DNA of 64,000 nt from an uncultured bacterium. Its GTDB lineage: Bacteria; Omnitrophota; Omnitrophia; Omnitrophales; Aquincolibacteriaceae. Positions 30,216 through 59,496 of the stretch are shown one piece after another. Made by a program: the position numbers and the translations under genes. The notes under the pieces are model-generated. The model saw nothing but the letters and a program-made list of their open reading frames with translations, had not been told where the DNA came from and ran no database searches. Within the stretch, counting starts at the first letter, position 1, and the number at the start of each line of letters is the position of its first letter. The stretch spans positions 18,534-82,533 of the forward strand of contig CAYQTU010000002.1 of assembly GCA_964420575.1 (NCBI GenBank), in the 5' to 3' direction.

Positions 30216-30263
30216 GAAAAACTCCTTTTCCAACCTCTATTTTTAAAAAACAGAAAAAATATT

Positions 30264-30321
30264 TCTCAAAACCTACGAAAACCTATTCCGAACCCCCCTG
30301 TTTTGGCCCAATACTATGAGA
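30264..30321 (+). promoter_or_regulatory. conserved ~60-bp promoter-like element, copy 1 of 3
   Basis: TCTCAAAACCTACGAAAACCTATTCCGAA-N8-GTTTTGGCCCAATACTATGAG; near-identical copies at 47305-47365 and 52998-53063, all ~80-100 bp upstream of + strand genes. Confidence 0.6.
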
Positions 30322-30946: not shown

Positions 30947-31711
30947 ATGAATCAACCGCCCGATAGCGAAAGTACCGCAATCGACGATTCTGACGATGAG
31001 TCAAAGATTATCACCCCGATTGAGTTAACGGATCGAGACATCGCGATTTTTAAATTGATCCACGAACACCGGTATTTGGCCTACGGCCAGATCCGGGAAG
31101 CGTTCTGGAAAGAGCGTTCGGAGTCGGCTAAAGCCTGTTACCGGCGGATCGAGCGGCTCATTAATTCAGGGTATCTTTCGAAAGGTTATTCCGGCCGAAA
31201 GAATCTGAACATCTATTTCGCGACCGAAAAATCCCTGGAGATCCTGAAAACTCGAAATCTCGATTCCGATATCCGACTTTATGAGCCCACCCCGTATTTC
31301 GATCGCTCCATCGACCATGATTTGAAAGTCGCAAGCGTAAGGATTTTCTTCCGGGAGTTTGGCCTGAGTGACTGGACCCCCGAAAGGGTGTTAAGGGAAC
31401 GCGATCATTTCTTTCGCGTCCCGGACGGTGTTTTGAATATTCGCGGGAAAAAGCTCGCAATCGAGTTCGAAAATCATCTGACGAAGAGCATGAAACGCTA
31501 TCAGGAAGTTTTTGATTATTACAGCGATCACAAGATCTATCTCCTGCTTCTCATGATTATCGACGGGGATACCAAGGACTGGCTCGTTCACGGAATGCGC
31601 TATAACGCCCAGAAGATCTGGATCACAACGTATCAGGAGCTGCTGAATGACAGGGAAGACACGCTTTTTGAAAATAAACGGGCCAGTTTCAAGCTGAGCC
31701 GGCTCTTTTAG
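30947..31711 (+). CDS. replication-relaxation (Replic_Relax) family protein
   Basis: 254 aa; N-terminal wHTH-like LTDRDIAIFKLIHEHRYLAYGQIREAFW...RRIERLINSGYL and C-terminal core HDLKVASVRIFF...VPDGVLNIRGKKLAIEFENH typical of this mobile-element family; RBS AAGGAGG. Confidence 0.55.
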   Translation: MNQPPDSESTAIDDSDDESKIITPIELTDRDIAIFKLIHEHRYLAYGQIREAFWKERSESAKACYRRIERLINSGYLSKGYSGRKNLNIYFATEKSLEILKTRNLDSDIRLYEPTPYFDRSIDHDLKVASVRIFFREFGLSDWTPERVLRERDHFFRVPDGVLNIRGKKLAIEFENHLTKSMKRYQEVFDYYSDHKIYLLLLMIIDGDTKDWLVHGMRYNAQKIWITTYQELLNDREDTLFENKRASFKLSRLF

Positions 31712-31719
31712 GGGGCGCG

Positions 31720-33540
31720 ATGCAAAAACCTCCTGTTAAAAGAGAACCGTTCCTCGTCCGTATGATCGGCGGGATTTTTGTGGGGATCCCTTTCGGGATT
31801 TCGAAGAGCATTCTGAATCTTTTGACGAGCCTTAAGCGTCCATCGCTTCAAAGACTGATCCCTGGGATACTTGTCTCGTTTTCGCTGTTTTGTGTTTTAA
31901 GGCTCGGCGCTCTTTTCGATCTGCTCGACCTTCTCTTTCAAAGCAGGCGGGTCGATCCCGGCTGGGCTGCGGGCGTGAAATTCGGGTTCTTTTTCCTGCT
32001 TTATCTCGTCATCACTCTCCCCGTTTTCCTGTGCTTTGCTTATTTGAATCAGGAAGCACGATTTTTCAAACAGGATCCAGTCAAACGAGACCCGTCTCCG
32101 GAACGGATGCGGTCTTTCCGCATGAAATCCGATTATCACAAGGTTTATCTGGGGTACGGCCTGAACCAGGAGAAACCTCTTTATCTCACCAACGACCAGC
32201 GCCTGATGCACTGCGAGGTGGTGGGAAGCACCGGCACCGGAAAAACGGAGTCCGTGCTTCTTCCGATGCTCGCCCATGACATCTCGCATGGGAAAGGCGC
32301 GATCATCATTGACGGAAAAGGGGACCTGGAACTCAGGGACAAGATCCGTTACATCGTCCATAAACAGAAGCGCGAGGATGACTTTTACTTCTTCTCGTTA
32401 AGCCATCCCCAAAAATCGAATACTTATAACCCGCTTTACCGCGGGAACCCCACGGAACTGAAAGACAAGCTCGTCAACAGCATGTCCTGGAGCGAGGAGT
32501 TTTACCGGCGCATGGCGGAACAAGCTGCGCTCACGCTTCTTAACGCCATCGCTTCCGCAGGCCGGAAACCCCGGTTTCGCGAGCTTCACGGCTATTTAAC
32601 GGACCTGCAAGCCTTACAAAAACTCTCGGATGAAACCAGGAGCCCGGTCCTGAAGGAAGACATTGGAAAAATGGTCACGGGTTTCAAGGACAATCACAAG
32701 TTTCTGGCCGGGTTAATATCCGATCTTTTCCTCACCTCAAGGAGCGAGTTCTCGGACCTTCTGGATACGGATGATCCCGATATCGATCTGCTTTCGCTTT
32801 ACGAGAATAACCAAATCTGCTATTTCGCGCTCGATCTTCAGAAATACGCGGATACTTCGCGGCGTCTCGGCCGGATGATCATCCAGGATATCCGTGCCGC
32901 TTCGAGCCATATCGTGTCCCATCTTACGGCTTACCGCCGTCATTTCTTCCCGGTGTTTATCGATGACGCCTCGAGTTTTTTGGAGCTTAATTTCATCGAT
33001 TTCCTGAATAAATGCCGGGCGAGCGGATATGCCGTTACGATTCTCCATCAATCCCTGGGGGACCTTGTTTACCGGGGGATGTCCAATTTCCAACAGCAGG
33101 TGGTCGAGAACACCAATATCAAGGTCATTTTGCGCCAGGATGATCCCTTTTCCGTGGAGAAGTTCGTGAAAATCGCCGGGACGCGCCGCACCATGATCGC
33201 GACTTACCAGACGCAGGAACAAATCCTTGGAAAAGGACTGACCGGCGCGGGCTCCGTTCGCGAAGGCCAGACTTTCCGCATCGAGCCGGACCTGATCCGG
33301 GGCCTTAAACGCGGCGAGGCCGCCTTGATCTGGAAAAACCCGTCTTTGTTGACCGATCATATTAAACTCGATTTCTTCGGGTACTCGAGTTATCCGGAAG
33401 AACCGTCCTCAAAAGACAACGGGGAGAAGATTCCAAAGAAAAAACGTGCAATAAAAACTCTCACCGAAGAAAAGGAGAAAACTCATGAGGAGATCAAAAA
33501 TCCGCTTGATATCATCAATCAATTAGAAAAAGAGAAATGA
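31720..33540 (+). CDS. type IV secretion coupling protein (VirD4/TraD/TraG-like ATPase)
   Basis: N-terminal TM helices, Walker A VVGSTGTGKTES, Walker B-like region FFPVFIDDASSFL, 606 aa. Confidence 0.8.
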   Translation: MQKPPVKREPFLVRMIGGIFVGIPFGISKSILNLLTSLKRPSLQRLIPGILVSFSLFCVLRLGALFDLLDLLFQSRRVDPGWAAGVKFGFFFLLYLVITLPVFLCFAYLNQEARFFKQDPVKRDPSPERMRSFRMKSDYHKVYLGYGLNQEKPLYLTNDQRLMHCEVVGSTGTGKTESVLLPMLAHDISHGKGAIIIDGKGDLELRDKIRYIVHKQKREDDFYFFSLSHPQKSNTYNPLYRGNPTELKDKLVNSMSWSEEFYRRMAEQAALTLLNAIASAGRKPRFRELHGYLTDLQALQKLSDETRSPVLKEDIGKMVTGFKDNHKFLAGLISDLFLTSRSEFSDLLDTDDPDIDLLSLYENNQICYFALDLQKYADTSRRLGRMIIQDIRAASSHIVSHLTAYRRHFFPVFIDDASSFLELNFIDFLNKCRASGYAVTILHQSLGDLVYRGMSNFQQQVVENTNIKVILRQDDPFSVEKFVKIAGTRRTMIATYQTQEQILGKGLTGAGSVREGQTFRIEPDLIRGLKRGEAALIWKNPSLLTDHIKLDFFGYSSYPEEPSSKDNGEKIPKKKRAIKTLTEEKEKTHEEIKNPLDIINQLEKEK

Positions 33541-44473: not shown

Positions 44474-45544
44474 ATGAAACTCGAAGAATTGGTCAAGACA
44501 CTCGAATCCGAAAAACTGAGGAAGTTCGATTATCTGGTGGACTCCCGCGATCTTTCGGCCGTTTCACAAGTCGGAGGTTCGCACGGGATTTCGTTCCGGG
44601 ATGCCGGAAAATTCCGGGAGTTATCCGAAACCACTCAATTCAACCTGCTGCGCGGCGCTCACCGTCAGATCGCGGATAAACTGGAGATCCCGGAAAAGTA
44701 TTACGATCGCCTTCTCCTGCATCCCGACGCCTGGGCCTTCAATGTGAACTGGTGGCTTGAGCGGGAGCCGAAGCATTTTCTGATGCGGACTTTTCAGGAG
44801 AAAAATGACGGTATGGGAATCATCCGGGCGCTTCTTTCGAATAGATACCGGGTGATCGATCACATGGACGCGCTTTTTACCGCTCTTGAGGAACTCCGGA
44901 AGTTTTCGGGGGTCCGCGTCGAATCCTGCGATCTTACCGAAGACCGGATGTATTTGCGGGTGAGTCATCCCGGGATTCGTGCCGAGATAAAACCGGGCGA
45001 TGAAATACTTGCCGGGATGATCCTCGCCAATTCGGAAACCGGGATCGGCAAACTCTATGTGAAACCCCGGCTTCTTCGTCTGGTCTGCAAAAACGGATTG
45101 GTGACGGATCTCGGGGTGGAGCAGGTTCATCTCGGGAAAAAACTTTCCGAGGAGTTTCTTTACTCGGATGAAACCCAGCGTCTCGAAAACGAGCTTCTTT
45201 TTCGGAAGATCAAGGACATGGTCCGCTCTATTTTCTCGCCGGACACGTTTCAGAAACTCGTCGATCTTCTTCGCGAGTCCGCTGAAGTGCGCGTTCTCGA
45301 ACCTGAGAAAGCGGTCAAGAATATCGTCACCCGTTATGTCCTTCGGGAAACTCAAAAAGAAGAGATCCTCCGGAGTTTCATTGACGGCGGCGATTCCTCC
45401 AAGTACGGCCTGATCCAGGCCGTGACGCACGCTGCTCACGCGGAAACTGATCCAAATGAAGCGTCTCGAATTGAGGCGATTGGCGGTGAGATTCTCGAGA
45501 TGGACCCGGCTCGTTTCGAGGAGTTAGTTACGATTAAAGCCTAA
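44474..45544 (+). CDS. DUF932-family protein (conjugative-element/phage-plasmid-associated)
   Basis: 356 aa; RBS TAAAGGAGGATAT; pattern HRQIADKLEIPEKYYDRLL...PDAWAFNVNWWL...LSNRYRVIDHMD...GMILANSETGIGKLYVKPRLLRLVCKNG resembles DUF932; untested by search. Confidence 0.5.
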   Translation: MKLEELVKTLESEKLRKFDYLVDSRDLSAVSQVGGSHGISFRDAGKFRELSETTQFNLLRGAHRQIADKLEIPEKYYDRLLLHPDAWAFNVNWWLEREPKHFLMRTFQEKNDGMGIIRALLSNRYRVIDHMDALFTALEELRKFSGVRVESCDLTEDRMYLRVSHPGIRAEIKPGDEILAGMILANSETGIGKLYVKPRLLRLVCKNGLVTDLGVEQVHLGKKLSEEFLYSDETQRLENELLFRKIKDMVRSIFSPDTFQKLVDLLRESAEVRVLEPEKAVKNIVTRYVLRETQKEEILRSFIDGGDSSKYGLIQAVTHAAHAETDPNEASRIEAIGGEILEMDPARFEELVTIKA

Positions 45545-45636
45545 GATCTGCCGCATGCTCTGGCGGGGAGTTTTTATTCTCCCCGCCGGGGGTCCTCCCT
45601 GGATTTTTCAATTGCATCGAAAGTGAGGTGATAAAA

Positions 45637-46017
45637 ATGAGAGGTTACGTTCTTGGCGAGATGCGGAAAGCTTGGGCTTGGTATAAACGGATCGTTTCGT
45701 TTTTCGCGCAGTGGATATTTCAGATGTTTCTTCGTTTGTTTATTCTCTGCGTGACGCTCTATGTTCTGGGTGGCGGCTGCCTTTTAAAGTCCTATCAAAA
45801 TAGCGGAAAAGGATCTGAACCGCCCGTTTCAACTCCGCTTGGAAACGGTCCCACCAACACGGATTATGAGTTTAATTCGCGAGGAGCGGTTCCCATTTAC
45901 CGTGAAAGAAACGAAGGACTCCAGAGCCAGCTTCGAACCAGTCAGTCGCAAGTGCGATCGTGGGATTATACGATCAACTCGATTAAAAACGATATCGAGC
46001 GTTGGTTCCGGAAATGA
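45637..46017 (+). CDS. hypothetical membrane protein
   Basis: ATG 45637 after AGTGAGGTGA; TM helix FQMFLRLFILCVTLYVLGGGCLL. Confidence 0.5.
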   Translation: MRGYVLGEMRKAWAWYKRIVSFFAQWIFQMFLRLFILCVTLYVLGGGCLLKSYQNSGKGSEPPVSTPLGNGPTNTDYEFNSRGAVPIYRERNEGLQSQLRTSQSQVRSWDYTINSIKNDIERWFRK

Positions 46018-46025
46018 CGGGGATC

Positions 46026-46070
46026 GGGGAGAGGGGTTGCTCCCTCTCCCCGAAAAGCGCTCTTTTTTTT
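46026..46070 (+). terminator. rho-independent terminator
   Basis: GGGGAGAGGG-GTTGCT-CCCTCTCCCC then GAAAAGCGCTC-TTTTTTTT. Confidence 0.6.
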
Positions 46071-46289
46071 GCCCAAAATCAGCTAATAATTTCACGTTTT
46101 CCTATTGTGTTTCTCGCAATTTTGATCATCCCTCATCAACCTCAAAAAATGTTTCGGCCGCCCCTTGCAAAAAAGAATTTCATACATTACAGTTCCTTTG
46201 CCCAAATGGGCACCCTGAAAAAAGTCTTTTCTTTTTTCGGGACGTTTGCGGTGGGTGATATGAGGCATCCACGCATGACATAAAGAACC

Positions 46290-46620
46290 ACCTATAGTTG
46301 GAGGCGAGACGCAAGCGCGTCTCGACGTATGCAGACTATAACTCAAGGCCGTGTGAGTCTGGACACGGCAACGCGGAAGGGTTGTTCGCGTCAGAGTTGT
46401 AGTGTGCCTCCAATCCCTTTTCCCCTCAGTTCGATCTTCACTCCTGTTTAAGTCCTGACCCTGTCAGGCGTCTGATCCTGGCCTGAATTTTTCCATTCAG
46501 GAACCTTCTCTCTTTTTTCAATGTCGATCCCTATCTTGGGATTCCTTCCAATGGGCATGGTGTCTTCGCATACTTCGCGGCCTTAAAAATCTTTTTTCGT
46601 TTTTAAGGCCCTCATTTCTT
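46290..46620 (+). ncRNA. candidate structured noncoding RNA or oriT-like multi-hairpin locus
   Basis: No credible ORF. Nested long-range pairings (TGGAGGC 46297 / GCCTCCA 46406 enclosing hairpins GAGACGC-aagc-GCGTCTC, CCGTGT-gagtctgga-CACGG, ACGCG-gaagggttgtt-CGCGT); further hairpins CCTGAC/GTCAGG, CCTGAAT/ATTCAGG, 11-bp perfect IR GGCCTTAAAAA/TTTTTAAGGCC (46579-46610). Bracketed by its own terminator. Confidence 0.35.
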
Positions 46621-46623
46621 GAA

Positions 46624-46658
46624 ACGGGCAGCCCCTTTCCGGGTTGCCCGTTTTTTTT
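46624..46658 (+). terminator. rho-independent terminator
   Basis: ACGGGCAGCC-loop-GGTTGCCCGT 10-bp stem then TTTTTTTT. Confidence 0.7.
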
Positions 46659-46697
46659 CCTCATTCCAGTTCTTCGCACGGCGGAAAGGACACCGCC

Positions 46698-47306
46698 GTG
46701 TCTACAAAGAACGAAAACGAAGAACAGAATCAAAACCTTGCCGAGGAGGCTGGGGAAGAAAGAGAAGAACGAACCAAATCAAGAACAAGGGCGGTTGATT
46801 TCATGCGTGTGGAAGATACGCAAGGCCAAACTCTCACTCACTTTGAACTGAAAGTGAAAGAAAAGATCGCCTGTGTCCCGAGTCCTTTTGAAGAACTCGC
46901 CAGGAAGGAGGATGAGGAAAACCGGTCCGAAGAGGTTCGAAACACACTGAGGGACTTAGTGGAGAAGGCTTTGACCGAGAAACAGAAAGCCTGGTTCCAT
47001 CTTGCGTACGTGGAAGAACTCCCGGACTTTGAGATCGCGAAACGCCTCGGCGTTACGAAACGCCGGGTTTCGTCTCTTAGAGCCGAGGCCTTAAACGCCT
47101 TCAAGCGCGTTTATGAGAAAGAACGGCTCAAGCAATATCTGGACACCTGCGCTCTCACGGAAAAACAGAGGCTTGTGATCGAACTCCGCTTTGAGAAGCG
47201 GCTCTCCTATAAAGAGATCGCGGAACGGTTGGGAGTGACGGTTTGGGCCGTGGATGACGTTTTAAAACGGATCCGGAAAAATTTTTTCTCTCGGGAAAAT
47301 TCGTGA
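46698..47306 (+). CDS. transcriptional regulator with two tandem sigma-70 region-4-like HTH domains
   Basis: LTEKQKAWFHLAYVEELPDFEIAKRLGVTKRRVSSLRAEALNAFKRV and LTEKQRLVIELRFEKRLSYKEIAERLGVTVWAVDDVLKRIRKNF; no region-2 detected. Start taken as GTG 46698 (alternative ATG 46803) because the ORF-track start 46644 lies inside the upstream terminator. Confidence 0.6.
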   Translation: MSTKNENEEQNQNLAEEAGEEREERTKSRTRAVDFMRVEDTQGQTLTHFELKVKEKIACVPSPFEELARKEDEENRSEEVRNTLRDLVEKALTEKQKAWFHLAYVEELPDFEIAKRLGVTKRRVSSLRAEALNAFKRVYEKERLKQYLDTCALTEKQRLVIELRFEKRLSYKEIAERLGVTVWAVDDVLKRIRKNFFSRENS

Positions 47307-47365
47307 AACCTACGAAGACCTATTCCGAACAGGGTCGTTTTGGCCCAATACTATGAGGGGAGATG
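47305..47365 (+). promoter_or_regulatory. conserved ~60-bp promoter-like element, copy 2 of 3
   Basis: GAAACCTACGAAGACCTATTCCGAACAGGGTCGTTTTGGCCCAATACTATGAGGGGAGATG; begins immediately after the stop of the region-4 regulator gene and ~95 bp upstream of the pilin gene. Confidence 0.6.
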
Positions 47366-47461
47366 CCACCCATTCAAATTTATTTGTGAGCGTCGCGATT
47401 CGCGGCTACCCCAGGGGGTTTAAGGCAAATCCCCCCTCACCTTATGAGGAGGGTAAAGAAC

Positions 47462-47779
47462 GTGAATGGAAAAAGTATTGGTCCAAAAATTCAAAAACTG
47501 GCCCTGTTCGGATTGCTCCTGTTGATCCGGGCACAGGTCGCGTACGCGGAAGCGACCTCGGAATCGGATTTAGGATCGTTTCTCGAGGGTGTCGGTGATT
47601 TTCTGATCCGAACGGTCGGTCCCGCCGTGCTCGTGATCGGGGTCGGAGTGGCCGGGGTCGGGATGGCGCTTGGCGATGAGCGCGCCATGCAGCGCGGCGC
47701 GCTTGCCGCGGGCGGCGGCGCTCTCATTTTGCTTTCCCGCGCGATTCTCGATTTCATCACGCACATCGCGCATTTTTAG
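47462..47779 (+). CDS. VirB2/TrbC-like conjugative pilin precursor
   Basis: GTG 47462 8 nt after GAGGAGGG; signal peptide ...LLLLIRAQVAYA|EA, two hydrophobic helices (TVGPAVLVIGVGVAGVGMALG; AAGGGALILLSRAILDFI). Confidence 0.6.
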   Translation: MNGKSIGPKIQKLALFGLLLLIRAQVAYAEATSESDLGSFLEGVGDFLIRTVGPAVLVIGVGVAGVGMALGDERAMQRGALAAGGGALILLSRAILDFITHIAHF

Positions 47780-47790
47780 GAGGTTTTGAA

Positions 47791-48069
47791 GTGAAAACGC
47801 TGAAAGGTTTCACGAAAATTCAAAGCAAGAACAAGATCCTCGGGCTCGAGTTCCTTGATCTTTTGATCCTGCTTCTTGTTTATCTGGTGGTGTTCGTTTT
47901 CTCCGCGAACCTTCTCCTCAACCTCGCGCTCGTGGCGGGAGCCTATTTTATTTTACGGCTCTACAAAAAAGGGAAGGCCCCGCACTGGGCGGGTTCTGTG
48001 ATCCGGTTCTTGCTAAAGCCCCGGAAATACGTTTTATGCCGGGAAAAAGAAGAGGAGCTTCCCCGATGA
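47791..48069 (+). CDS. VirB3/TrbD-like small membrane protein
   Basis: GTG after GGAGG; 92 aa with one or two TM helices; position between pilin and VirB4-like ATPase with 4-nt overlap. Confidence 0.45.
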   Translation: MKTLKGFTKIQSKNKILGLEFLDLLILLLVYLVVFVFSANLLLNLALVAGAYFILRLYKKGKAPHWAGSVIRFLLKPRKYVLCREKEEELPR

Positions 48070-50579
48070 AAACGAGTCTTCTCACTAAAACTCGGGACCT
48101 CATCCAGCGGGAGAATAGTCCCTCGTTTCTGCGTCAGATCGATCTTTATGACATTGAGGACGGAATTCTGCTTGGGGTAAGCGGCAGCATGGCTCGCGGG
48201 TTCTGGTTTGGCGGAAAGGATGTACTGCTTTCAAGCGAGGCCGAGATCGAGGATTTCGAAAGAAAGATGCGAAAGTTCTTAAACGCGCTCCCGGAAGGAG
48301 CAACTCTCCATTTCGTGGTCCGATCCGGGACTGGGGATGAAGACTCACTCAAGCAATACGCCTCTTCGATTCAAAGCGGAGTTTCGCTTGGAAAAACCTT
48401 TCTTGACGCGAAACTCGGCGCGTACCGGAAACATCCTCTTTTGAAAAAGGAAGTTTTTTTGTTTGTGGTGATCCATCCGAAGACGAGAAAACCGCGTTCC
48501 TCGTTTCTTCCGGATCTGTCCGTCGCATTCGGGAAAAAAGCGCACCGCCTCTCCGAACTTGAATACTCCGCATCGAGAGAAACGCTTCACGCGCTTACGA
48601 CCGAGATCGAGGAAAGTTTCCGTACGCTCGGTTTCGATATGCGCGCGCTTTCCGACCCAGAACTCACCAAGTACTTGTATGAGTTCCTGAACCCGTTTTA
48701 TTCGAAGGAATTCGTTCCCTTCGAGAAAGCCAATTTTAAAGCGAGCGACTCTGACCCGGCGAGCCTCAGAAGCCGTCTTTCGCTTCATCCTCCGCGTCTT
48801 GGGTACGAGTATTTCTATCTCGACCACTATTTTTACCGGGCATTGAATCTCGTCCGTTTGCCTGACTCCACGACTCTTAAATCCATGAAAGATTTCGAGC
48901 GCTCGCTCGGTAACGATTATTTCCTTACGGTCACTTTCGAGGTTCCCGATCAGGACCGCGAGAAATCGGAGATCCGGCGGTACGGGAACTTCGCGAGAGC
49001 GAAAACCTTTTACTCCCGAGCGAAGGATCATGACGCGCTCGCGCAAGCCGGGGAAACGGACGAGCTTTTGACGGAGATTGCCCAAAGCGCGGACAAGCTC
49101 TTTTACGTTTCGTTTTCCGTGATGGTGCGTGCCGAGACCTTGGGAGAAAGCGTCCGGTCTTCCAGGCAGGCGCTTCGTGCTTTCCGGGATCTCGGGGACG
49201 CTCAGGGGATCGAGGACCACATGAATCACGACCGTTTATTTCTTTCGTTTTTGCCGCTTCAGGGCGATGAAAACCCGCTCGCGTTCATAGTTCGTTCCGA
49301 AGTCCTAACGCATCTTCTTCCGCTTCAGGCGAGCTGGCGAGGGACGGACCGGATCGGGCTGCTTCTCAAGACTTACCGTAACGAACCGCTCCGCCTCGAT
49401 CTTTTCGATTCGAAGCTTCAGGCGAAACACAGCGTAATGCTCGGCACGACCGGGAGCGGAAAGAGTTTTTTTACGAACCACTTACTCCTTCATTTCCTGA
49501 TTGAGTCTCTGGATCATGAAGTGATCGTGATCGACCTGGGCGGCAGTTACCGGAAACTGGCCGGAGTTCTGGGCGGGTCTTATCTCGAAGTAGAATGCTC
49601 GGAAAAATACGCGTTAAACCCTTTTCCTGCCAAGGCAGTTCTTTTCCCGGACGGAGGAGCGGACGCGACTTTCATTCAGTTCCTGAAGGAACTGCTCAGG
49701 CAGATGATCGCCCCGAGACGGGAATGGTCCTCAAGCGAGAAGATGATCCTTGAACGGGCGATTCTGGAAGTCTACCGGAATATTGGTGCCCAGGATGCCC
49801 CGCTTCTCGGGGACATCGAAAAATGCCTTCGCAATTTCCAGATCGGGGATGAGGAGGACCGCAAGAAAGCGTATCAGTTCGCGAAAGAACTTACGCTTTT
49901 CACGGAAGGCGAGTACGGGAAGATCCTTAACCGATGCGGGGTCTTTGATTTTAATTCGCGGTTCACGGTTTTCGATCTCCGGAAGATTTCGCAATACCCC
50001 GAGCTTCAGGAGATCCTGCTGCTCATTATTCCGTTCGCGCTTCGCCGTAAATTCGAGAACTTGAATCTAAAGAAGATCCTCGTTTTGGACGAATGCTGGC
50101 AGCTTCTGAAAGACAGTCAGGGGACGGATCTTGTCGAGACCTTCTACAGGACCGCCCGGAAAATGAACGCCGCGGTTTGCTCGATCTCTCAAAACCCAGC
50201 GGATTTTCTCGAGGCGTCCATCGCGAGCGTCATGATCAATAACTCTCCGGTTAAATACATCCTTCGGCTCAAGGAAGGCCACGGGAAACTCTCGCTTTTC
50301 GGGCTGAACGAAAACGAGATCAAAGCGGTCGGGGAGCTTGAGGTGAGACCGGGCCGGTACTCGGAAGTGTTTATCAAATTCGACGATCGAAGCGTCATTG
50401 CCCGTCTTGAGCCAAGCGCTCTCGAGTATTGGGCCGCCACGACGGACGCTCTGGATTTGGCAGAGGAAACCCGGCTCCGGAAAGAACATCCGGATTATCC
50501 GCCGATCAAGATCCTCGAAACGCTTTCCCGGGAGTTTCCAAACGGCGTTAAGAAATCAAACGAGGCGGATCATGTCTGA
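48066..50579 (+). CDS. VirB4/TrbE/CagE-like type IV secretion ATPase
   Basis: ATG 48066 after GAGGAG; Walker A MLGTTGSGKSFF, Walker B ILVLDECWQLL, ~840 aa, conserved C-terminal region. Confidence 0.9.
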   Translation: MKTSLLTKTRDLIQRENSPSFLRQIDLYDIEDGILLGVSGSMARGFWFGGKDVLLSSEAEIEDFERKMRKFLNALPEGATLHFVVRSGTGDEDSLKQYASSIQSGVSLGKTFLDAKLGAYRKHPLLKKEVFLFVVIHPKTRKPRSSFLPDLSVAFGKKAHRLSELEYSASRETLHALTTEIEESFRTLGFDMRALSDPELTKYLYEFLNPFYSKEFVPFEKANFKASDSDPASLRSRLSLHPPRLGYEYFYLDHYFYRALNLVRLPDSTTLKSMKDFERSLGNDYFLTVTFEVPDQDREKSEIRRYGNFARAKTFYSRAKDHDALAQAGETDELLTEIAQSADKLFYVSFSVMVRAETLGESVRSSRQALRAFRDLGDAQGIEDHMNHDRLFLSFLPLQGDENPLAFIVRSEVLTHLLPLQASWRGTDRIGLLLKTYRNEPLRLDLFDSKLQAKHSVMLGTTGSGKSFFTNHLLLHFLIESLDHEVIVIDLGGSYRKLAGVLGGSYLEVECSEKYALNPFPAKAVLFPDGGADATFIQFLKELLRQMIAPRREWSSSEKMILERAILEVYRNIGAQDAPLLGDIEKCLRNFQIGDEEDRKKAYQFAKELTLFTEGEYGKILNRCGVFDFNSRFTVFDLRKISQYPELQEILLLIIPFALRRKFENLNLKKILVLDECWQLLKDSQGTDLVETFYRTARKMNAAVCSISQNPADFLEASIASVMINNSPVKYILRLKEGHGKLSLFGLNENEIKAVGELEVRPGRYSEVFIKFDDRSVIARLEPSALEYWAATTDALDLAEETRLRKEHPDYPPIKILETLSREFPNGVKKSNEADHV

Positions 50580-50699
50580 GGCGGTAGCGGAACGGCACAA
50601 ACGATGGATCGGAAGAATTCGCCGGAGACTGTTTCTCCGGTTCTTTTTGGGGGTTCTGATAATTAGCCTTGGATTTTTACTTTTATTTGGGAGGTAATT
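50571..50699 (+). CDS. hypothetical small membrane protein (42 aa)
   Basis: ATG 50571 overlapping VirB4 end; RRRLFLRFFLGVLIISLGFLLLFG. Confidence 0.3.
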
Positions 50700-50700
50700 T

Positions 50701-51468
50701 ATGAGGAAATCATCAAGGATTCTATTTCTGGCGCTCTTTTTACTGAGCGCCGCGATTCCGAGATCTTACGCGCTCATCGTGAACGATCCAATTCACACCG
50801 CGGTCAATCAGCTTCAAAACTCGATCCTTCAAACCGAGTGGGCGAAACAGATTGCGCTCGCGATCGAGCATCTCAACCAGCTCACGAATCAAACTATGGA
50901 GATCTTCCGGTTTCATTCGGGGCTGGATGAGATTTTAAATTCCATCATCGGCGATCCTTTACGGAATCTTCTCGGGCAGGGCACCACGAATTTGCAGAAC
51001 GCTTTCAGAGATCTCGGCCTTACCGGTTCTCAAATCCAGATCGTGCAGGGAGCGACCGGTCCAGAAGACATCCGTTTCGCTTTGGAGGATCTCACCGGGA
51101 AAATCCCGGAAACGGACGCGAAACCCTACCTCGCGTTTGACGAGATGCAGGTGGTGGACGCCTTCGATCTCGCCCGGCAGATCCGGCAGGCGGGAGACAC
51201 GACGCGCACTGCCGCAACCCAGATCGCGGATGAGGCCGTGACCGCAAGCCCGAAAGGGGCTGTGCGCCTCCAGGCGCAGGCCATGTCCCAGCTCATGGTG
51301 CTCAGTCAACAGAACCAGGAAGCCATGGCGAAACTGCTTGAACTTGAAGCCACAAAAATCTCTCAGGTCACGCGCGAAGAAAAACGCGTGGAAACGGAAC
51401 GCCTCAAATTCATGGAAGACGCCGGCGATTACGCGGACGGTATTGCCCGGGCGTTTATAGGAGCGTAA
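50701..51468 (+). CDS. secreted alpha-helical protein, possible VirB5/TrbJ-like
   Basis: Signal peptide MRKSSRILFLALFLLSAAIPRSYA; helical/coiled content; position after VirB4. Confidence 0.35.
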   Translation: MRKSSRILFLALFLLSAAIPRSYALIVNDPIHTAVNQLQNSILQTEWAKQIALAIEHLNQLTNQTMEIFRFHSGLDEILNSIIGDPLRNLLGQGTTNLQNAFRDLGLTGSQIQIVQGATGPEDIRFALEDLTGKIPETDAKPYLAFDEMQVVDAFDLARQIRQAGDTTRTAATQIADEAVTASPKGAVRLQAQAMSQLMVLSQQNQEAMAKLLELEATKISQVTREEKRVETERLKFMEDAGDYADGIARAFIGA

Positions 51469-51475
51469 TTATTTT

Positions 51476-52336
51476 ATGGCTGGTTTCTTTAGCGCAAACG
51501 AAGGGTTCCTCTTCACGAATGTGTTGCAGATCCCGAATCTTTTCGAGCAGCCGTATCAGACCATGTCACGGATCGGGTTTATCCTGCTTTCGATCCTTTT
51601 CATCGTGGCGATCCTTCATGAGAATTTTCAGGCGCTTAAAGGCAAGTCCGATTACACGGGCCTTTTCATCCGGGTCCTCTTAGTCGTCGGGCTTCTCATT
51701 CTTTACGAGCGGTTCTTCATCTGGATCGTGTACGGCTCGGATCTTGTGTCGAACGCGATCATGCCGCATGAAGAATTCCAGGAAGTCATTAAAGCGTTCC
51801 TCAAACAACCGTTGAGCTGGAAAACTGCGTGGAAATTCGATCTAAGACTTACCGCCACGGTCCTAAATTACGTGACCTACGCGATTGCCGGGGCGCTCCT
51901 TGGCGCGATTATGATGCTCCGGTTTCTGCTTTTGTCGTTCCTGTATGTTGTCGGCCCGATCGTGATCTCGGCGGGGATCTATAAAGGGACCGCTCAGGGC
52001 CTAAACGCCTGGCTTAAAAGTCTCGTCTCCATTTCCTCATGGAATATTTTTCTCGCGGTTCTCATGAAAGTCGTCTCCGTCATGAATCTGACCGCGATCT
52101 ATCTCACGGAAGAAAGCAATTTCATGATGATCCTCGCCGCGAACGTGCTTTTTATCGTGCTCTTTGTGCTCGTCCCGCTTCTTTCCAACCAGTTCGTTTC
52201 CGGGGGGAACCTGGGCGGTCTTGGCTCCATCGCGCTGGGCGCGTTTACCGCGGTAGCGACCCGTTACATCATTCCTAAATCGCCTTCATCCTCAAAACCT
52301 CAAACCCCAACCGGGCAAGGAGCCGGTTACAAATGA
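51476..52336 (+). CDS. polytopic membrane protein, possible VirB6/TrbL-like
   Basis: 286 aa with >=5 hydrophobic helices; C-terminal Ser/Pro/Gly tail; T4SS operon position. Confidence 0.45.
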   Translation: MAGFFSANEGFLFTNVLQIPNLFEQPYQTMSRIGFILLSILFIVAILHENFQALKGKSDYTGLFIRVLLVVGLLILYERFFIWIVYGSDLVSNAIMPHEEFQEVIKAFLKQPLSWKTAWKFDLRLTATVLNYVTYAIAGALLGAIMMLRFLLLSFLYVVGPIVISAGIYKGTAQGLNAWLKSLVSISSWNIFLAVLMKVVSVMNLTAIYLTEESNFMMILAANVLFIVLFVLVPLLSNQFVSGGNLGGLGSIALGAFTAVATRYIIPKSPSSSKPQTPTGQGAGYK

Positions 52337-52980
52337 AAACTCGATTCCACGAAAGACTCGAGACCATGAAACGCCGTTATTATGAGGTGTTCGGAGATCT
52401 GGAAGCGCAAGTCGAATTCCTGAAACTCATCAGTCTTTTTTTGCTCGCGCTTCTTTTTTTCACGATCTTTGGCGCTTTTCTGCTCGCGAAACGGCCGCCG
52501 GTGGTGATCCGGGTAAATGAGGTGGGACGAGCCGAAGCGATTCACGATCTTGAGCAGAATAACGCTCCGAGCGATTTCGAGCTTTTCGATTTCTCAAAGA
52601 CTTTCACGAAAAGATTCCGGGAACTCAACTCCTATACGCTTGCAAACGATACCGCCGAGGCCTGGAACCGCATGACGACGCGGTATCGGAAAGTCGCGGA
52701 CCGGGATCTTGTGGACTCCGGATTCTTCGCGAAATTCCATGATACCGGTCTTTACACGCATATCGAGTTCAAGGAAGAATCGATCGACCGGAATACTCCG
52801 GAATACGTGAAAATCGCGCTGATCGGGGTGCGGACCATCCTCAATTACAACGACCGGGATTATAAGGAATCGAGTCTCTTTAAAGCCGAGCTGCTTTTAA
52901 AGAAGGTTCCGAGAAGCAAAGAGACGCCTTGGGGCGTCCTTGTCGAAGACTACCGCGAAATCCTCCTCAATAAACTCTAA
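52333..52980 (+). CDS. VirB8/TrbF-like bitopic protein
   Basis: Cytoplasmic N-term, single TM (LISLFLLALLFFTIFGAFLLA), periplasmic ~150-aa domain; 4-nt overlap with upstream gene. Confidence 0.5.
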   Translation: MKTRFHERLETMKRRYYEVFGDLEAQVEFLKLISLFLLALLFFTIFGAFLLAKRPPVVIRVNEVGRAEAIHDLEQNNAPSDFELFDFSKTFTKRFRELNSYTLANDTAEAWNRMTTRYRKVADRDLVDSGFFAKFHDTGLYTHIEFKEESIDRNTPEYVKIALIGVRTILNYNDRDYKESSLFKAELLLKKVPRSKETPWGVLVEDYREILLNKL

Positions 52981-52997
52981 AAATCTTCGTTTTTTTT

Positions 52998-53063
52998 CTC
53001 AAAACCTACGAAAACCTATTCCGAAACACCCCGTTTTGGCCCAATACTATGAGGGGAGATGTA
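52998..53063 (+). promoter_or_regulatory. conserved ~60-bp promoter-like element, copy 3 of 3
   Basis: TCTCAAAACCTACGAAAACCTATTCCGAAACACCCCGTTTTGGCCCAATACTATGAGGGGAGATG, ~85 bp upstream of the VirB9-like gene. Confidence 0.6.
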
Positions 53064-53144
53064 CCGGTCTCCCGGGGGCCATTCGGGCCCTTCAAGATGA
53101 CTTGGTTTCTCATCCCCTCCATTTACATAAGGAGCGGGGAATCC

Positions 53145-55420: not shown

Positions 55421-55473
55421 ACAAGGACCGGTGAAAGATCATGTTCGAATCTAAAAGGGAGGAATCGCTCGTG

Positions 55474-56826
55474 ATGAAAAAGGGTAACGTGTGGGGTGTC
55501 GCCGTAACGCTTTTTGCGGTCGTTTTGTTTTCCGCGAATGCTTTCAACGCCGCAGCGGCGGATGTCGCCCTTTCGCCGGAGCAGTTTGGGTCCCTTTTAA
55601 CTCTCGATGAAGCCGTGGCAAGAGCGCTCAAAAACCACGCGGAAGTGAAACGGGCGGTTGCCCGGCTTCAAAAAGAGGAGTCCCTTTACAAAGGGGCCCT
55701 CGCAGAGTTTTTTCCCAAACTATCCGGCGAGATCACGTCCGCAGTCGCGACGGGCGATAAACATTTCGTGAATTACGTGGATACGGGGATTGAGCAGCCG
55801 ATTTTTCAGGGCGGGAAAGCGGTGGCGCAGAAACAGAAACAAAAGGCGATTGTTCAAAGCGAACAATTACGGTTGGAGCAGGCCAAACTCGATGTCGAAG
55901 CCGGCGTCCGGGTCTTGTACGCCGAGGTGCTTTCGGAAAAGGAACTGACCCGGATCGCGCAAGGCGAGGTCAAGGAACTTTCCACGCAGTATGAGCGGAT
56001 CAAGAAACTCGTCGAGCAGGAGGTTCTTCCTCGCTACGAATTTTTCAGGATGGAGACGCTTTTCCAGGGCGCGAAACAAGCGCTCGTCAAACACAAGGAA
56101 ACCTGCGATTACCTGTTTACGGTTCTTAAGGAAACGATCGGGATCGGGGAAGGAGAATCCCTGGATCTGGAACCTCTCGGGGATTTCCAGGAACTTGACG
56201 AGAACGCGCTTTCCTATCTTACAAGCGCCCGCAAAAGCGATCCGGTCTATAAACTCCGGGACCTCAAGATCCGCGAAAAAGAGTATGAGAAAAAGGAGCT
56301 TTCCGCCGACCGGTATCCGCACTTAAGCCTTACCGCGAAATGGAACGAGGCGAGCGATGTTTTCGTGGACACAAACCGCGTGATGGTTGGTTTTGTCGGG
56401 AAATGGAACATCTGGGATTTCGGCAGGCTCGGTTCGAAGATCAACGCGAAATCTCATGAGATCGAGGAAATGAAATGGGAAGGCGAACTTCAGGTGAAAA
56501 AACACGAACGCGGGATTCGCGAGGCGTTTCACGAGGCCCGCGCCGTCCGCGAAAAGATCAGGTTAACGGAAGCGCTCATCCGCGAACGCGAGGAACTCTA
56601 TAAAAACGAAAAGACAAGATTGATCGCCGGGGAAAAAGGCTCCGGAGAATTGATCGATTCCTTTATGGCGCTCGAGGAAGCGAAGATCAAAAACGTGCAG
56701 GCGGTGGCCGAATACCGCGTTCTTCTCGTGAAACTTGAGAAAAAAGCGAATTTCGAAACGGAATCGCAAGGTTCCGAGACCGAAATGCCGGTTCCGCCCT
56801 TCGACTCCGGGGAGGTGGAGGAATGA
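55474..56826 (+). CDS. TolC-family outer membrane efflux protein
   Basis: ATG 55474 after GGGAGG; signal peptide MKKGNVWGVAVTLFAVVLFSANAFNAAAA; two OEP-like repeats with coiled-coil character. Confidence 0.7.
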   Translation: MKKGNVWGVAVTLFAVVLFSANAFNAAAADVALSPEQFGSLLTLDEAVARALKNHAEVKRAVARLQKEESLYKGALAEFFPKLSGEITSAVATGDKHFVNYVDTGIEQPIFQGGKAVAQKQKQKAIVQSEQLRLEQAKLDVEAGVRVLYAEVLSEKELTRIAQGEVKELSTQYERIKKLVEQEVLPRYEFFRMETLFQGAKQALVKHKETCDYLFTVLKETIGIGEGESLDLEPLGDFQELDENALSYLTSARKSDPVYKLRDLKIREKEYEKKELSADRYPHLSLTAKWNEASDVFVDTNRVMVGFVGKWNIWDFGRLGSKINAKSHEIEEMKWEGELQVKKHERGIREAFHEARAVREKIRLTEALIREREELYKNEKTRLIAGEKGSGELIDSFMALEEAKIKNVQAVAEYRVLLVKLEKKANFETESQGSETEMPVPPFDSGEVEE

Positions 56827-58409
56827 TGACGATCAAGATCCCCGTTCCCGGGTGGTTCAAGGACCCTAGAAAAAGAACGGGGCTTTTTCTTGGGACAGTG
56901 TTCGTGCTGACGCTTGCCGCCACTTATCTTGTGGCCTCCTCCGTTGTTATGACGGAAGACACGTTTCTTTTGAGCGCGGCATGGATCGCTGGCTTCGGGT
57001 TTCTCTTCTTTAACGTGGCCTATCTTTTTCTGACAAGCGCGGTGCATCCATTCCTTAAGACGCCTATCCTGAAAGAAGACTACGTGAAACGGTTCCCGAA
57101 AGTGGCGCTGGTTTATCCGATCCGCAATGAATCCTACGGGATGTCGCAGAGAATGCATTATTCGTTTTCCGGCAATAAATTCCATAACGTGGATCTGTGG
57201 ATTCTTTCGGATTCTGCCGAGGAGTTTTCGCCCTATGAAGCGAACCTTGTCGCGAAACTCGAAGCTCTTCATCCCGGCCGCGTGTTTTATAGAAGAAGAG
57301 CGCATCCGGTTGAGCGGAAACAGGGGAATATCGCCGAGTTTCTGCATTCGCATCCGGAGTATGACTACCTATATATATGCGACGCGGATGGAATGGTGCC
57401 CAAGGGGACGCTCCTTAAGCTACTCAGGAAAGCGGAACATCCCGAAAACCGGGATATCGCGATCTTTCAGGCGTTCGTCAGGATCGCGCACGCGACGACC
57501 TGGTACTCGCGCTTTGAAAGGATCGGAACGCAGTTTGCGCAGCGCCTGAACTTCGTCGCGGTTCAAGCGATATTCGGGCGCACTATCTCTTTCGGGCATC
57601 ATCATCTTGCCCGGAGAGAAGCGATTTCCAAGATCCGACTCCCCAAGGGACTGCTTTCGCACGATAACTGGGACACCGTTCGCCTGGATCAGATGGGATA
57701 CCGGGTCGCGTTTTGTCCGGATGTGGAGGCTTATGACGAAGCGCCCTCGAACTACCTTGAGGCGAAGGCAAGGGCGAGCCGCTGGGCACAGGGAACGCTT
57801 CAAGGCGTGCCCCTTATTTTTGAGCCGAACGTGTCGCTCGCTTCCCGGTTTCTCGCCGGCTACGGTATTTATCTTTACCTTTCGGATATCGTGTTCTTTT
57901 TTTGGGTGTTGCTCGGGCTCTTTTCACATTCCTTGGTCACCGGGGAACTGATCTATTTCCGGATCGATTCGCTCTGGATGAATTTTTTCTCGAATCAGAT
58001 CCTGAAATGGATCCTTCTGTTCAGTCTTGCGGTTGTTTTTCTGCATAAAGCCGTGATCGTGAAAACGTGGGAAGATGTCCGCCATTATCTTTATGAACTC
58101 GTTATCTCGACTTTGGTCACGCTCAATAACTTTATCTACAGCCCGCTCGCCATTCTGAGCATCCCTTTAAAGAAGCTGAACTGGCGGCCCATGGTGAAAA
58201 ACCCGTTCGCCACGGTAGATTTCGCCACCGCGGTCCGCTCGCTATGGATCGGGACCGTGTTCGGGCTCTTCGGTCTTTATTTTTGCACGAATCTCACGCC
58301 GTACTTCGTTTGGCAGATAACGCCCATTCTCATCAGTCTTATTTTTTCGATACCTGCAGTCTATTTCACAGCAAAATCAATTCCCGCGAAATTGAGAAGC
58401 TGGATTTGA
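56823..58409 (+). CDS. membrane glycosyltransferase family 2, OpgH/MdoH-like
   Basis: KQGNIAEF, YLYICDADGMV (D,D), DNWDTVR, RASRWAQGTLQ (QxxRW-type) plus N- and C-terminal TM helices; 4-nt overlap with TolC-like gene. Confidence 0.7.
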   Translation: MMTIKIPVPGWFKDPRKRTGLFLGTVFVLTLAATYLVASSVVMTEDTFLLSAAWIAGFGFLFFNVAYLFLTSAVHPFLKTPILKEDYVKRFPKVALVYPIRNESYGMSQRMHYSFSGNKFHNVDLWILSDSAEEFSPYEANLVAKLEALHPGRVFYRRRAHPVERKQGNIAEFLHSHPEYDYLYICDADGMVPKGTLLKLLRKAEHPENRDIAIFQAFVRIAHATTWYSRFERIGTQFAQRLNFVAVQAIFGRTISFGHHHLARREAISKIRLPKGLLSHDNWDTVRLDQMGYRVAFCPDVEAYDEAPSNYLEAKARASRWAQGTLQGVPLIFEPNVSLASRFLAGYGIYLYLSDIVFFFWVLLGLFSHSLVTGELIYFRIDSLWMNFFSNQILKWILLFSLAVVFLHKAVIVKTWEDVRHYLYELVISTLVTLNNFIYSPLAILSIPLKKLNWRPMVKNPFATVDFATAVRSLWIGTVFGLFGLYFCTNLTPYFVWQITPILISLIFSIPAVYFTAKSIPAKLRSWI

Positions 58410-58428
58410 AGAGGAGGAGCCAAAAGAA

Positions 58429-59496
58429 ATGAGTGACACACAGACGAACGAAAAACCCGAGAAAGACAAAAATAAAAACACGCAGGAGCCAGCTCTTTTT
58501 GAAGAGAAAACGGAGGGGGGCGGTAAATGGAAAACGAGAGTTTTCCTGATCCTTCTTATCCTGGGAGTGGGCCTTATTTTCTGGCCCAAGGGATACATCA
58601 AGGGAGAAGGGATTGTTCAAGCCGATCGGTTTGCGAGGATCGGGCTTACGAGTTCGGGGATTCTGAGGGAGCTGCTGCATAAGAAAGGGGATACGGTGAA
58701 GAAAGGAGAGTTGCTCGTGCGTTTCGAGAATCCGGAACTCTCCCGGAAATTCGAGGAACGGAAACTGAACCTCGAGATCCTGAATCACGATAAAACACGG
58801 CTTGAAAAGCAGGTTGAATTTCTCGCTAAAGACAAAGACCGGAAGAGCATTCTTTTCGAGAACGGAGTAATCGGCCGTCTTCAGTTCGATAAAGCCGCGC
58901 TGGATTATACCCAGGTCGCGGAAGAACTCAGTATGCGCTTAAAAGAGATCGAGTCGGTTGAAGGGGAAGTGAAATATTTGAAGGAAAGAGCGGAGTCACT
59001 TGAGCTTAAAGCGCCGTTTGACGGAATGCTTCTTACGGATCCCGGTATTACGATCGGGAATCTCTTGAAGGAAGGCGATTTTGTTTTGGAATTTGCGGAC
59101 CCGCGAAGTTTCTTTCTTGAAGTTCTTGTGTTTGAAAAGGAAGTGGAAAAGGTCGCGCCGGGAAACACCGTCACGGCCCGATTCCGTGCTTTTCCCTGGA
59201 AGACTTATTCCGGGGTTGTGACGGAGGTTGGTCCTCGCACCACCGATGAGATCGAGAAAGTTTTTAATGTGAAACACGTGGTCCCTTGCGAGATCAAATT
59301 GGATGAGTTCCCATCAAACGCGAAATACGGAATGCGTGCCTGGATCAAGATCAGCGGAAGACGCCGGATCTTGCAAAATAAGACGCCAGTAATCCAAAAA
59401 CCTTCTCAGGAGGAGCTTGCGAGATTCATCAATCCGAAGGCGCTCGATATGAAAGCTCCGGGTAAGGAGAAAGCAAACGATGTACCGGTTAAATAA
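58429..59496 (+). CDS. HlyD-family membrane fusion / periplasmic adaptor protein
   Basis: N-terminal TM, biotinyl/lipoyl-like hairpin TSSGILRELLHKKGDTVKKGELLVRFENPEL, coiled-coil, beta-barrel C-term. Confidence 0.75.
   Translation: MSDTQTNEKPEKDKNKNTQEPALFEEKTEGGGKWKTRVFLILLILGVGLIFWPKGYIKGEGIVQADRFARIGLTSSGILRELLHKKGDTVKKGELLVRFENPELSRKFEERKLNLEILNHDKTRLEKQVEFLAKDKDRKSILFENGVIGRLQFDKAALDYTQVAEELSMRLKEIESVEGEVKYLKERAESLELKAPFDGMLLTDPGITIGNLLKEGDFVLEFADPRSFFLEVLVFEKEVEKVAPGNTVTARFRAFPWKTYSGVVTEVGPRTTDEIEKVFNVKHVVPCEIKLDEFPSNAKYGMRAWIKISGRRRILQNKTPVIQKPSQEELARFINPKALDMKAPGKEKANDVPVK

Follow-up and report, generated by a model that had tools for sequence, protein, structure and literature searches.

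A putative tandem region-4 regulator and a co-evolving direct-repeat box at conjugation operons of an Omnitrophota element

Three operons in a 64,000-nt stretch of DNA from an uncultured Omnitrophota bacterium, hereafter called the window, are preceded by copies of the same 59-nt motif, and directly upstream of the second copy lies a gene for a protein with two HTH units of the sigma-70 region-4 type. This raises the question whether the protein, in the following called the regulator, acts at the motif, and whether it would switch the downstream operons on or off. The three copies (the second at 47299-47357) were found by a repeat search and are 81-95% identical; for a 51-nt query taken from the motif, 0 matches are expected by chance. 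The upstream part of the motif includes an element-specific box, which contains two half-sites. In copy 2 these are AACCTA (47307-47312) and GACCTA (47317-47322), arranged as a direct repeat with N4 and a register of 10 bp. The initial annotation had described AACCTA-N5-AACCTA in an 11-bp register, but the N5 pattern gave 0 matches. A search for AAACCT-N4-RRACCTAT returned exactly the three copies. No box was present beyond the three operon starts in the 64-kb window and none beyond operon starts in distant loci, and the core motif had 0 matches in IMG/VR. The TGA stop codon of the regulator gene (47304-47306) shares its final A with the first half-site AAACCT (47306-47311), and with this 1-nt overlap the stop codon indeed abuts copy 2, as had been noted before. 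The order of the T4SS genes downstream of copy 2 (Table 1) is the same in related loci.

Table 1. Features of the regulator locus and of the three motif copies, with positions in the window.
Feature	Position	Strand	Remarks
Motif copy 1, box 30269-30292	30262..30320	+	Precedes operon of 147-aa ORF / Replic_Relax / T4 coupling protein
Leader of the regulator gene, conserved, non-coding, ~680 nt	46018..46697	+	
Regulator gene, 202-aa tandem region-4 protein	46698..47306	+	GTG start; identical to database protein P0001
Family-specific N-terminal module, residues 27-92	46776..46973	+	Family alignments
HTH1, sigma-70 region-4 unit, FliA-like	46974..47117	+	Pfam, NCBIfam, AF2, PDB profile; recognition helix TKRRVSSLRAEAL
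HTH2, sigma-70 region-4 / YlxM-like unit	47154..47297	+	Pfam, NCBIfam, AF2, PDB profile; recognition helix TVWAVDDVLKRIR
Copy 2, box (element-specific upstream half)	47306..47329	+	AAACCTACGAAGACCTATTCCGAA
Copy 2, spacer, 8 nt, non-conserved	47330..47337	+	CAGGGTCG
Copy 2, constant core, presumed core promoter	47338..47354	+	TTTTGGCCCAATACTAT; -10 assignment ambiguous
Copy 2, 3' end	from 47355	+	GAGGGGAG...
trbC/virB2 5' leader	47354..47461	+	Compensatory changes across loci
T4SS operon after copy 2	47444..52980	+	TrbC/VirB2, VirB3-like, VirB4 (847 aa), two unknowns, TrbL/VirB6-like, VirB8-like
Motif copy 3, box 53002-53025	52995..53053	+	Precedes operon of CagX(VirB9)/TrbI(VirB10)/OEP
Box of another element, L005-type			AAATGTCCGGGTCATTGATCCGGA

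The surroundings of the three operons show further features. Upstream of the transfer region, a single ORF of 5005 aa extends over positions 10989-26006 (+ strand). Between this giant ORF and copy 1, a LacI-family regulator (28390-29475) and a glucoamylase-like protein (26019-27824) are encoded, which are probably cargo. After copy 1, the sole relaxase candidate is a 254-aa Replic_Relax protein (PF13814) adjoining the coupling protein (30947-33540); a classical relaxase domain was not found among the ORFs scanned. VirB10 is followed in the same orientation by genes for a TolC-like OEP, an ortholog of glycosyltransferase proteins and an HlyD-type protein (55441-59496); the glycosyltransferase domains are present in the orthologs from related loci, where the arrangement is conserved.

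Of the sigma-70 family hallmarks, the regulator has the region-4 HTH and lacks region 2. In Pfam, both Sigma70_r4 (E 7e-19) and Sigma70_r4_2 (E 9e-16) matched two stretches of the protein, and the best 25 of the 27 families obtained at E<=10 did not include Sigma70_r2. The NCBIfam model sigma70-ECF (TIGR02937) likewise matched twice, with a score of 73.3 versus a cut-off of 42.9, and the stretch shown corresponds to model positions 106-159 of 165, i.e., the region-4 part. When the family profile was compared with PDB sequences, HTH1 resembled sigma4 of FliA (1rp3, E 3e-6) and HTH2 resembled YlxM/UPF0122 (1s7o, E 1e-5), and no region 2 was detected by this search either. These two proteins are the closest sequence relatives of the respective units, but FliA possesses regions 2 and 3, of which the regulator has neither, and YlxM/UPF0122 is a single-HTH protein of ~110 aa. 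The YlxM equivalog NF045758 scored 53.3 bits against a cut-off of 80, the regulator consisting of two HTHs plus an N-terminal module. HTH1 also gave 25.3 bits with the Pfam family KORA (KorA/TrfB, PF16509), which is below the cut-off of 26.7. An in-frame TTG at 46644, upstream of the GTG, extends the gene in the ORF listing to 46644..47306 (220 aa).

The N-terminal module is the best-conserved part of the family and follows the pattern R.RVR.VDFMRVE...L.PFELEVKEKIA..SP..E, succeeded by a long acidic helix; E39 and E50 are invariant across 34 clusters. A profile of residues 27-92 had no relative in PDB or Pfam and no similarity to sigma2 or sigma3. In the AF2 model of the regulator (pLDDT 75), residues 1-36 are disordered and acidic, and helices 48-59 and 63-91 precede two three-helix HTH units formed by helices 94-105/110-117/121-150 (HTH1) and 155-166/171-178/182-201 (HTH2). 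According to this model, a sigma2 bundle would not fit into the protein, as only ~60 ordered residues (two helices) precede HTH1. A Foldseek search against PDB yielded single-domain matches to sigma4, YlxM and KorA-type proteins only, none with E<1e-3. The initial annotation had proposed two region-4 HTHs without region 2 and had considered the protein unlikely to be a true sigma factor; both statements hold, since Pfam, NCBIfam, PDB profile and AF2 agree on the architecture and the profile searches gave no region 2. Across their first 30 residues HTH1 and HTH2 share 53% identity, which suggests an internal duplication of the region-4 unit. Their recognition helices are unrelated (KRRVSSLRAEAL versus VWAVDDVLKRIR), and HTH2 carries acidic residues (AVDD) at the DNA-contact positions of sigma4, which is unusual for a DNA-reading helix.

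A word-indexed search for relatives of the regulator found only 14 clusters, and an exhaustive profile search of 1.84 billion representatives found 32 clusters at E<=1e-30. Approximately 55-65 full-length clusters (50% identity) contain the N-terminal module and both HTHs. The hosts are labelled Candidatus Omnitrophota (one MAG and the single-cell genome of Ca. Omnitrophus fodinae). Among the carriers, L011 and L013 are from Omnitrophota, and L003 (GCA_030688765.1) is a MAG labelled Candidatus Harrisonbacteria, reflecting either a mis-binned mobile element or a cross-phylum transfer. In PLSDB plasmids no homolog of the regulator was found, the single partial match being spurious. Some metagenomic proteins (P0070, P0096, P0112) are 390-900 aa long and contain 6-10 tandem region-4-like HTH units; such arrays of sigma-4-type HTHs seem not to have been described as an architecture so far.

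In 100% of the relatives with downstream DNA, from 79% down to 28% identity and including the Omnitrophus single-cell genome, trbC-virB3-virB4 lies directly downstream of the regulator gene. In every such locus, a bipartite box of the [AAAyn-N5-AAAyC] type begins 0-15 nt from the stop codon of the regulator gene or overlaps it. After the box come a C-rich spacer and the sequence TTG(G)CCCAAnACT, in this or a recognisably related form. The co-occurrence of protein family and motif in other genomes, which had been suggested as a check, is thus given in all relatives with downstream DNA, with the box at the stop codon and trbC/virB2 thereafter. In L022 (105-773), the reading frame lacks the usual stop and continues for ~30 codons through box and core, which could reflect either an error in sequencing or a genuinely longer C-terminus. 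The features that define the proteins as a new family, namely the N-terminal VDFMRVE...PFELEVKEKIA...SP module, two region-4 units and trbC/virB2 directly downstream, were all found. This trbC-linked family with one N-terminal module and two region-4 units is undescribed.

We compared the motif copies of four elements having both trbC and virB9 promoters. The upstream 24 nt showed 94% identity between paralogous copies within an element versus 67% between elements. For the 8-nt spacer the relation was reversed, with 44% within an element (paralogs) versus 53% between elements (orthologs), and in three close elements 2-3 of 8 positions were identical in paralogs versus 5-8 of 8 in orthologs. 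The core TTTGGCCCAATACT was constant across elements, as expected of a sequence read by the host. Gene conversion does not account for this pattern, because it would have homogenised the spacer between box and core too. Selection for a shared, element-specific reader offers the simpler explanation, and the concerted pattern points to an element-encoded factor reading the upstream half.

Protein and box also differ together in some relatives. In P0008 and P0010, HTH2 and the distal half (AAATCTGTGA) are unchanged, and both HTH1 (RRV to RN[V/L]) and the proximal half are altered. In P0011, P0012 and L019, HTH2 is of the 'AL[D/E]K/AVDK' type and the distal half reads [A/G]AATGTCC. This covariation hints that HTH1 might read the proximal and HTH2 the distal half, although it comprises few independent events, is confounded by phylogeny, and concerns in the distal half a sequence that also overlaps the last codons of the gene. 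A duplicated region-4 unit with unrelated recognition helices would suit the non-identical half-sites of most elements. Among distant elements, both half-sites are best conserved at AAA; in the L005 group the proximal A-tract is lost, and the non-A/T bases of the box (CCTATTCCGAA) are conserved within groups. The half-sites GAAAC/GAAGAC resemble the AAC-containing -35 elements recognised by sigma4 of ECF type, in the same orientation.

A promoter of the sigma-70 type, i.e., TTGACA and TATAAT hexamers together, was not present at the core. If TACTAT is taken as -10 region, the box extends from -54 to -39, and with TACTnT in this role the half-sites are centred near -41.5 and -51.5; with TTGGCC as -10 region, the box extends from -45 to -30, and GACCTA-N16/17-TTGGCC has the canonical -35/-10 spacing. 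The box is separated by the 8-nt spacer and the core from a stem in the trbC leader, which begins at the T of TGAGGGG or, in L024 and L031, 2-4 nt further 5', so that the transcriptional start may fall within ACTnT. A start at the leader stem would result in the arrangement GACCTA-N16/17-TTGGCC-N~7-+1 and would put the proximal half-site precisely at -35. Several other assignments were rejected. A sigma-54 promoter (TTGGCCC...) would need a GG 12 nt ahead of the GC, which copies 1 and 3 lack, and in distant elements the sequence is TTGCCC, with just one G. For a sigma-28 promoter (GCCCAATA versus GCCGATAA), TAAA is missing at the -35 distance. A Bacteroidetes-type -7/-33 motif was not supported, as there is only a partial TTTG and no -33 TTTG. 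TTGGCC as -35 region would require a conserved hexamer 17 bp downstream, which is missing except in copy 1.

The end of the motif, GAGGGGAG, forms the 5' arm of a covarying stem that closes the trbC leader of 75-100 nt. In the window, the 5' arm is TGAGGGGAGAT (47354-47364), and its pairing partner ATCCCCCCTCA (47429-47439) lies directly ahead of the SD sequence GAGGAGGG. The stem thus joins the very 5' end of the leader (UGAGGGGAGAU) to an anti-SD-like 3' arm, CUCCCCUCA, which immediately precedes the SD UGAGGAGGG. Compensatory pairs were found across loci (GGGGGGAGAG/CUCUUCCCCC, GAGGAGAAGC/GCUUCUCCUC, AUGGGGAAGG/CCUUCCCCAU and UGAGGAGGGGUGC/GCGCCCCUCCUCA; many in all), and a similar stem arrangement exists at copy 3 (53050-53144). 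The conserved sequence had originally been regarded as a promoter element, but its 3' end is RNA structure and not promoter. The stem may serve as a 5'-end stabiliser or as a translational switch. A leader peptide starting at ATG 47363 (MPPIQIYL) was discarded, as it is not conserved (MPPN in L010, no ATG in L005). As start codon of trbC, GTG 47462, with the SD GAGGAGGG 8 nt upstream, is more likely than ATG 47444 proposed by the ORF caller.

In the leader of the regulator gene, identity between elements amounts to 77-87%, against only 52-79% for their proteins. Its core of ~130 nt (~46297-46425) is near-invariant and predicted to fold into a three-way junction (z = -5.5). An intrinsic terminator, a 14-bp hairpin (46621-46654) followed by T8, lies ~35 nt ahead of the start codon, and an invariant CGCACGGCGGAAAG surrounds SD and start codon, with a hairpin over SD and GTG. 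Terminator and CGCACGGCGGAAAG motif persist in all family loci. A search of Rfam with positions 45500-47500 gave sub-threshold chance matches only. The leader looks like an attenuator or riboregulator providing attenuation-type control of the regulator. At the leader start, TTTTTTTTGCCCAAAATCAGATAATAAT (46069-46076; also in L003 at 9362, L005 at 4312 and L010 at 2145) resembles the core TTTTGGCCCAATACT without a box, and may be a box-independent promoter for leader and regulator gene. A self-contained regulatory circuit, as suggested in the initial annotation, is not what we found, because no box precedes the regulator gene, which is placed behind a conserved leader RNA and a strong terminator.

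Based on these data, we tentatively propose that the regulator is an activator of the PhoB/MarA type that would work as a monomer through its two HTHs and is predicted to bind at or beside the -35 position, and assign this reading a probability of approximately 0.45. Encoded by the element itself, the regulator would recognise a specific sequence and switch on the conjugation operons. As a monomer with two non-identical sigma-4-type HTHs connected by a short, predicted helical linker, it would occupy the 24-bp box, with HTH1 on the promoter-proximal half-site (G/AACCTAT...) and HTH2 on the distal one (AAACCTA). The half-sites are one helical turn apart, so both HTHs would sit on one face of the double helix. 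The box would be situated directly upstream of, or over, the -35 region of the constant core, which would itself be read by the host RNA polymerase holoenzyme, and the N-terminal module, pointed toward the core promoter, may contact the polymerase. Structured leader, terminator and SD hairpin would gate expression of the regulator and keep the T4SS off by default.

The presence of two region-4 units without region 2, the strict linkage to trbC, the confinement of the box to three operon starts in 64 kb, and the concerted, element-specific evolution of the box argue for an activator. Moreover, a core lacking a sigma-70-type promoter and a regulator gene behind a terminator are both characteristic of systems that are off by default and depend on an activator. 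The covariation hints and the resemblance of the half-sites to ECF-type -35 elements count in favour of this reading as well. Other observations speak against this assignment: the few and phylogeny-confounded covariation events, the acidic AVDD at DNA-contact positions of HTH2, the A-tracts conserved across distant elements, which fit an UP element too, and the possible start site at the leader stem, which would place the proximal half-site at -35 and thereby favour a surrogate of sigma region 4. Repressors, too, can use upstream sites.

Alternatively, the regulator might be a global repressor that binds the same box and silences constitutive conjugation promoters, like KorA/KorB/TrbA on IncP plasmids. 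That a single regulator finds the same site at every transfer operon is a pattern known from IncP and IncW plasmids and counts in favour of repression, as do the near-threshold KORA match of HTH1, the KorA-DNA complex among the fold matches, and the high conservation of the core, which could be a strong host-sigma promoter. Nevertheless, we consider a repressor rather unlikely, since the site lies upstream of the core and not over the -10 region or the start, the core shows no recognisable sigma-70-type promoter, and the regulator gene, lacking a box of its own and following a terminator, has an arrangement unusual for an autoregulated repressor. KorA (TrfB) of IncP is, like the regulator, an HTH protein of small size with identical operators at several transfer and maintenance operons, but it binds as a dimer to a palindromic operator over the -10 region, whereas here one chain with two HTHs would face a direct repeat upstream of the core, and the Pfam and fold similarity of HTH1 to KorA is weak and below the Pfam cut-off.

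The position of the proximal half-site raises another possibility, that the protein replaces region 4 of the host sigma factor or, as an atypical sigma factor, cooperates with an unseen sigma-2 partner in the manner of SigO-RsoA. HTH1 on the proximal half would then represent the -35 contact, HTH2 would read an extra upstream element, and TTGGCC(CAA) would be the -10 region. In agreement with this, GACCTA-N16/17-TTGGCC is canonically spaced, the leader stem with its 5' extension in L024 and L031 puts +1 ~7 nt after TTGGCC, contrary to TACTAT as -10, and the N-terminal module, HTH1 (proximal) and HTH2 (distal) follow one another with the same downstream-to-upstream polarity as the regions of sigma factors. 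In addition, NCBIfam alignments of the FliA/SigX type extend from HTH1 into the N-terminal part, like linker plus region 4, and the acidic disordered N-terminus resembles region 1.1. Such a role is unlikely, though: TTGGCC lacks the A-11/T-7 signature of a sigma-70-type -10 region, the HTHs are joined by a linker that could not reach from -35 to -10, the N-terminal module has no similarity to sigma2 or sigma3, and no region 2 was found in the regulator and no region-2-like match (Sigma70_r2, E<=1) among 20 unknown neighbouring ORFs, a search of limited sensitivity to very divergent partners. The related idea of a mobile 'sigma-4 cassette', in which each element would own a private promoter code and share a constant -10-like core, is similarly doubtful. 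For an anti-sigma-like adaptor, which the initial annotation had offered as an alternative, nothing in our analysis speaks.

We regard it as distinctly unlikely that the box consists of phased A-tracts forming an UP element, or of curved DNA, read by the alpha C-terminal domains, with the regulator acting elsewhere or without reading the box. With TACTAT as -10 region, the A-tracts are centred at ~-42 and ~-52, which are the positions of UP subsites, and the predominance of AAA in both half-sites over distant elements is consistent with such a role. However, a site read by the host should not vary between elements and yet agree within each, non-A/T bases are conserved within groups, and the L005 group lacks the proximal A-tract. 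Finally, an ordinary ECF or group-3 sigma factor with a region 2 too divergent for detection is highly improbable despite the above-cut-off TIGR02937 score and source annotations of relatives as 'sigma factor-like' or 'specialized sigma subunit', because that score combines two matches, with the region-4 part of the model in the stretch shown, and the ~60 ordered residues before HTH1 match no sigma region.

Proteins containing only sigma region 4 and element-encoded regulators of conjugation are both already known. The activator proposed here would be most comparable in layout to PhoB at pho boxes and to MarA/SoxS/Rob at class II marboxes, which also act at asymmetric direct two-unit sites of ~20 bp abutting or replacing the -35 region, with the units one helical turn apart and promoters lacking a good -35 region. 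In MarA, two HTHs of one chain read the site, as proposed for the regulator. However, PhoB uses a winged helix and MarA HTHs of the AraC type where the regulator has sigma-70 region 4, and the regulator has neither a receiver nor an AraC domain and carries a unique N-terminal module, so the likeness is one of predicted architecture and not of homology. In the two-subunit sigma factor SigO-RsoA (YvrI-YvrHa) of Bacillus subtilis, SigO retains region 4 and lacks region 2 (PMC7826278, refs 58-59). Its region 4 is single, and region 2.3 is supplied by a partner encoded next to it, whereas the regulator has two region-4 units. Orf7 and Orf8 of Tn916 are small element-encoded positive regulators upstream of transfer genes, and their own expression is gated by attenuation or antisense control (PMC5812530). 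They belong to another host phylum and T4SS type, and the comparison is one of description; Orf7 is not called a tandem region-4 protein there (PMC5812530).

The literature searched contained no tandem region-4 regulator and nothing specific on the control of conjugation in Omnitrophota, and there is no description in it of a tandem region-4 chain that combines a new N-terminal module with strict linkage to trbC and co-evolves with a direct-repeat box. For Omnitrophota, an uncultured phylum whose cells are very small, the regulator and its box represent a concrete and testable candidate for a regulator-operator pair in conjugation. With region 4 duplicated, region 2 lost and an N-terminal module added, the protein embodies a transcription-factor design absent from the literature searched. 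If it were a surrogate of sigma region 4, mobile elements would have a further, new way of switching promoter specificity. The diverged protein/box pairs provide a data set on how region-4 helices read DNA and for the design of orthogonal promoter/regulator pairs.
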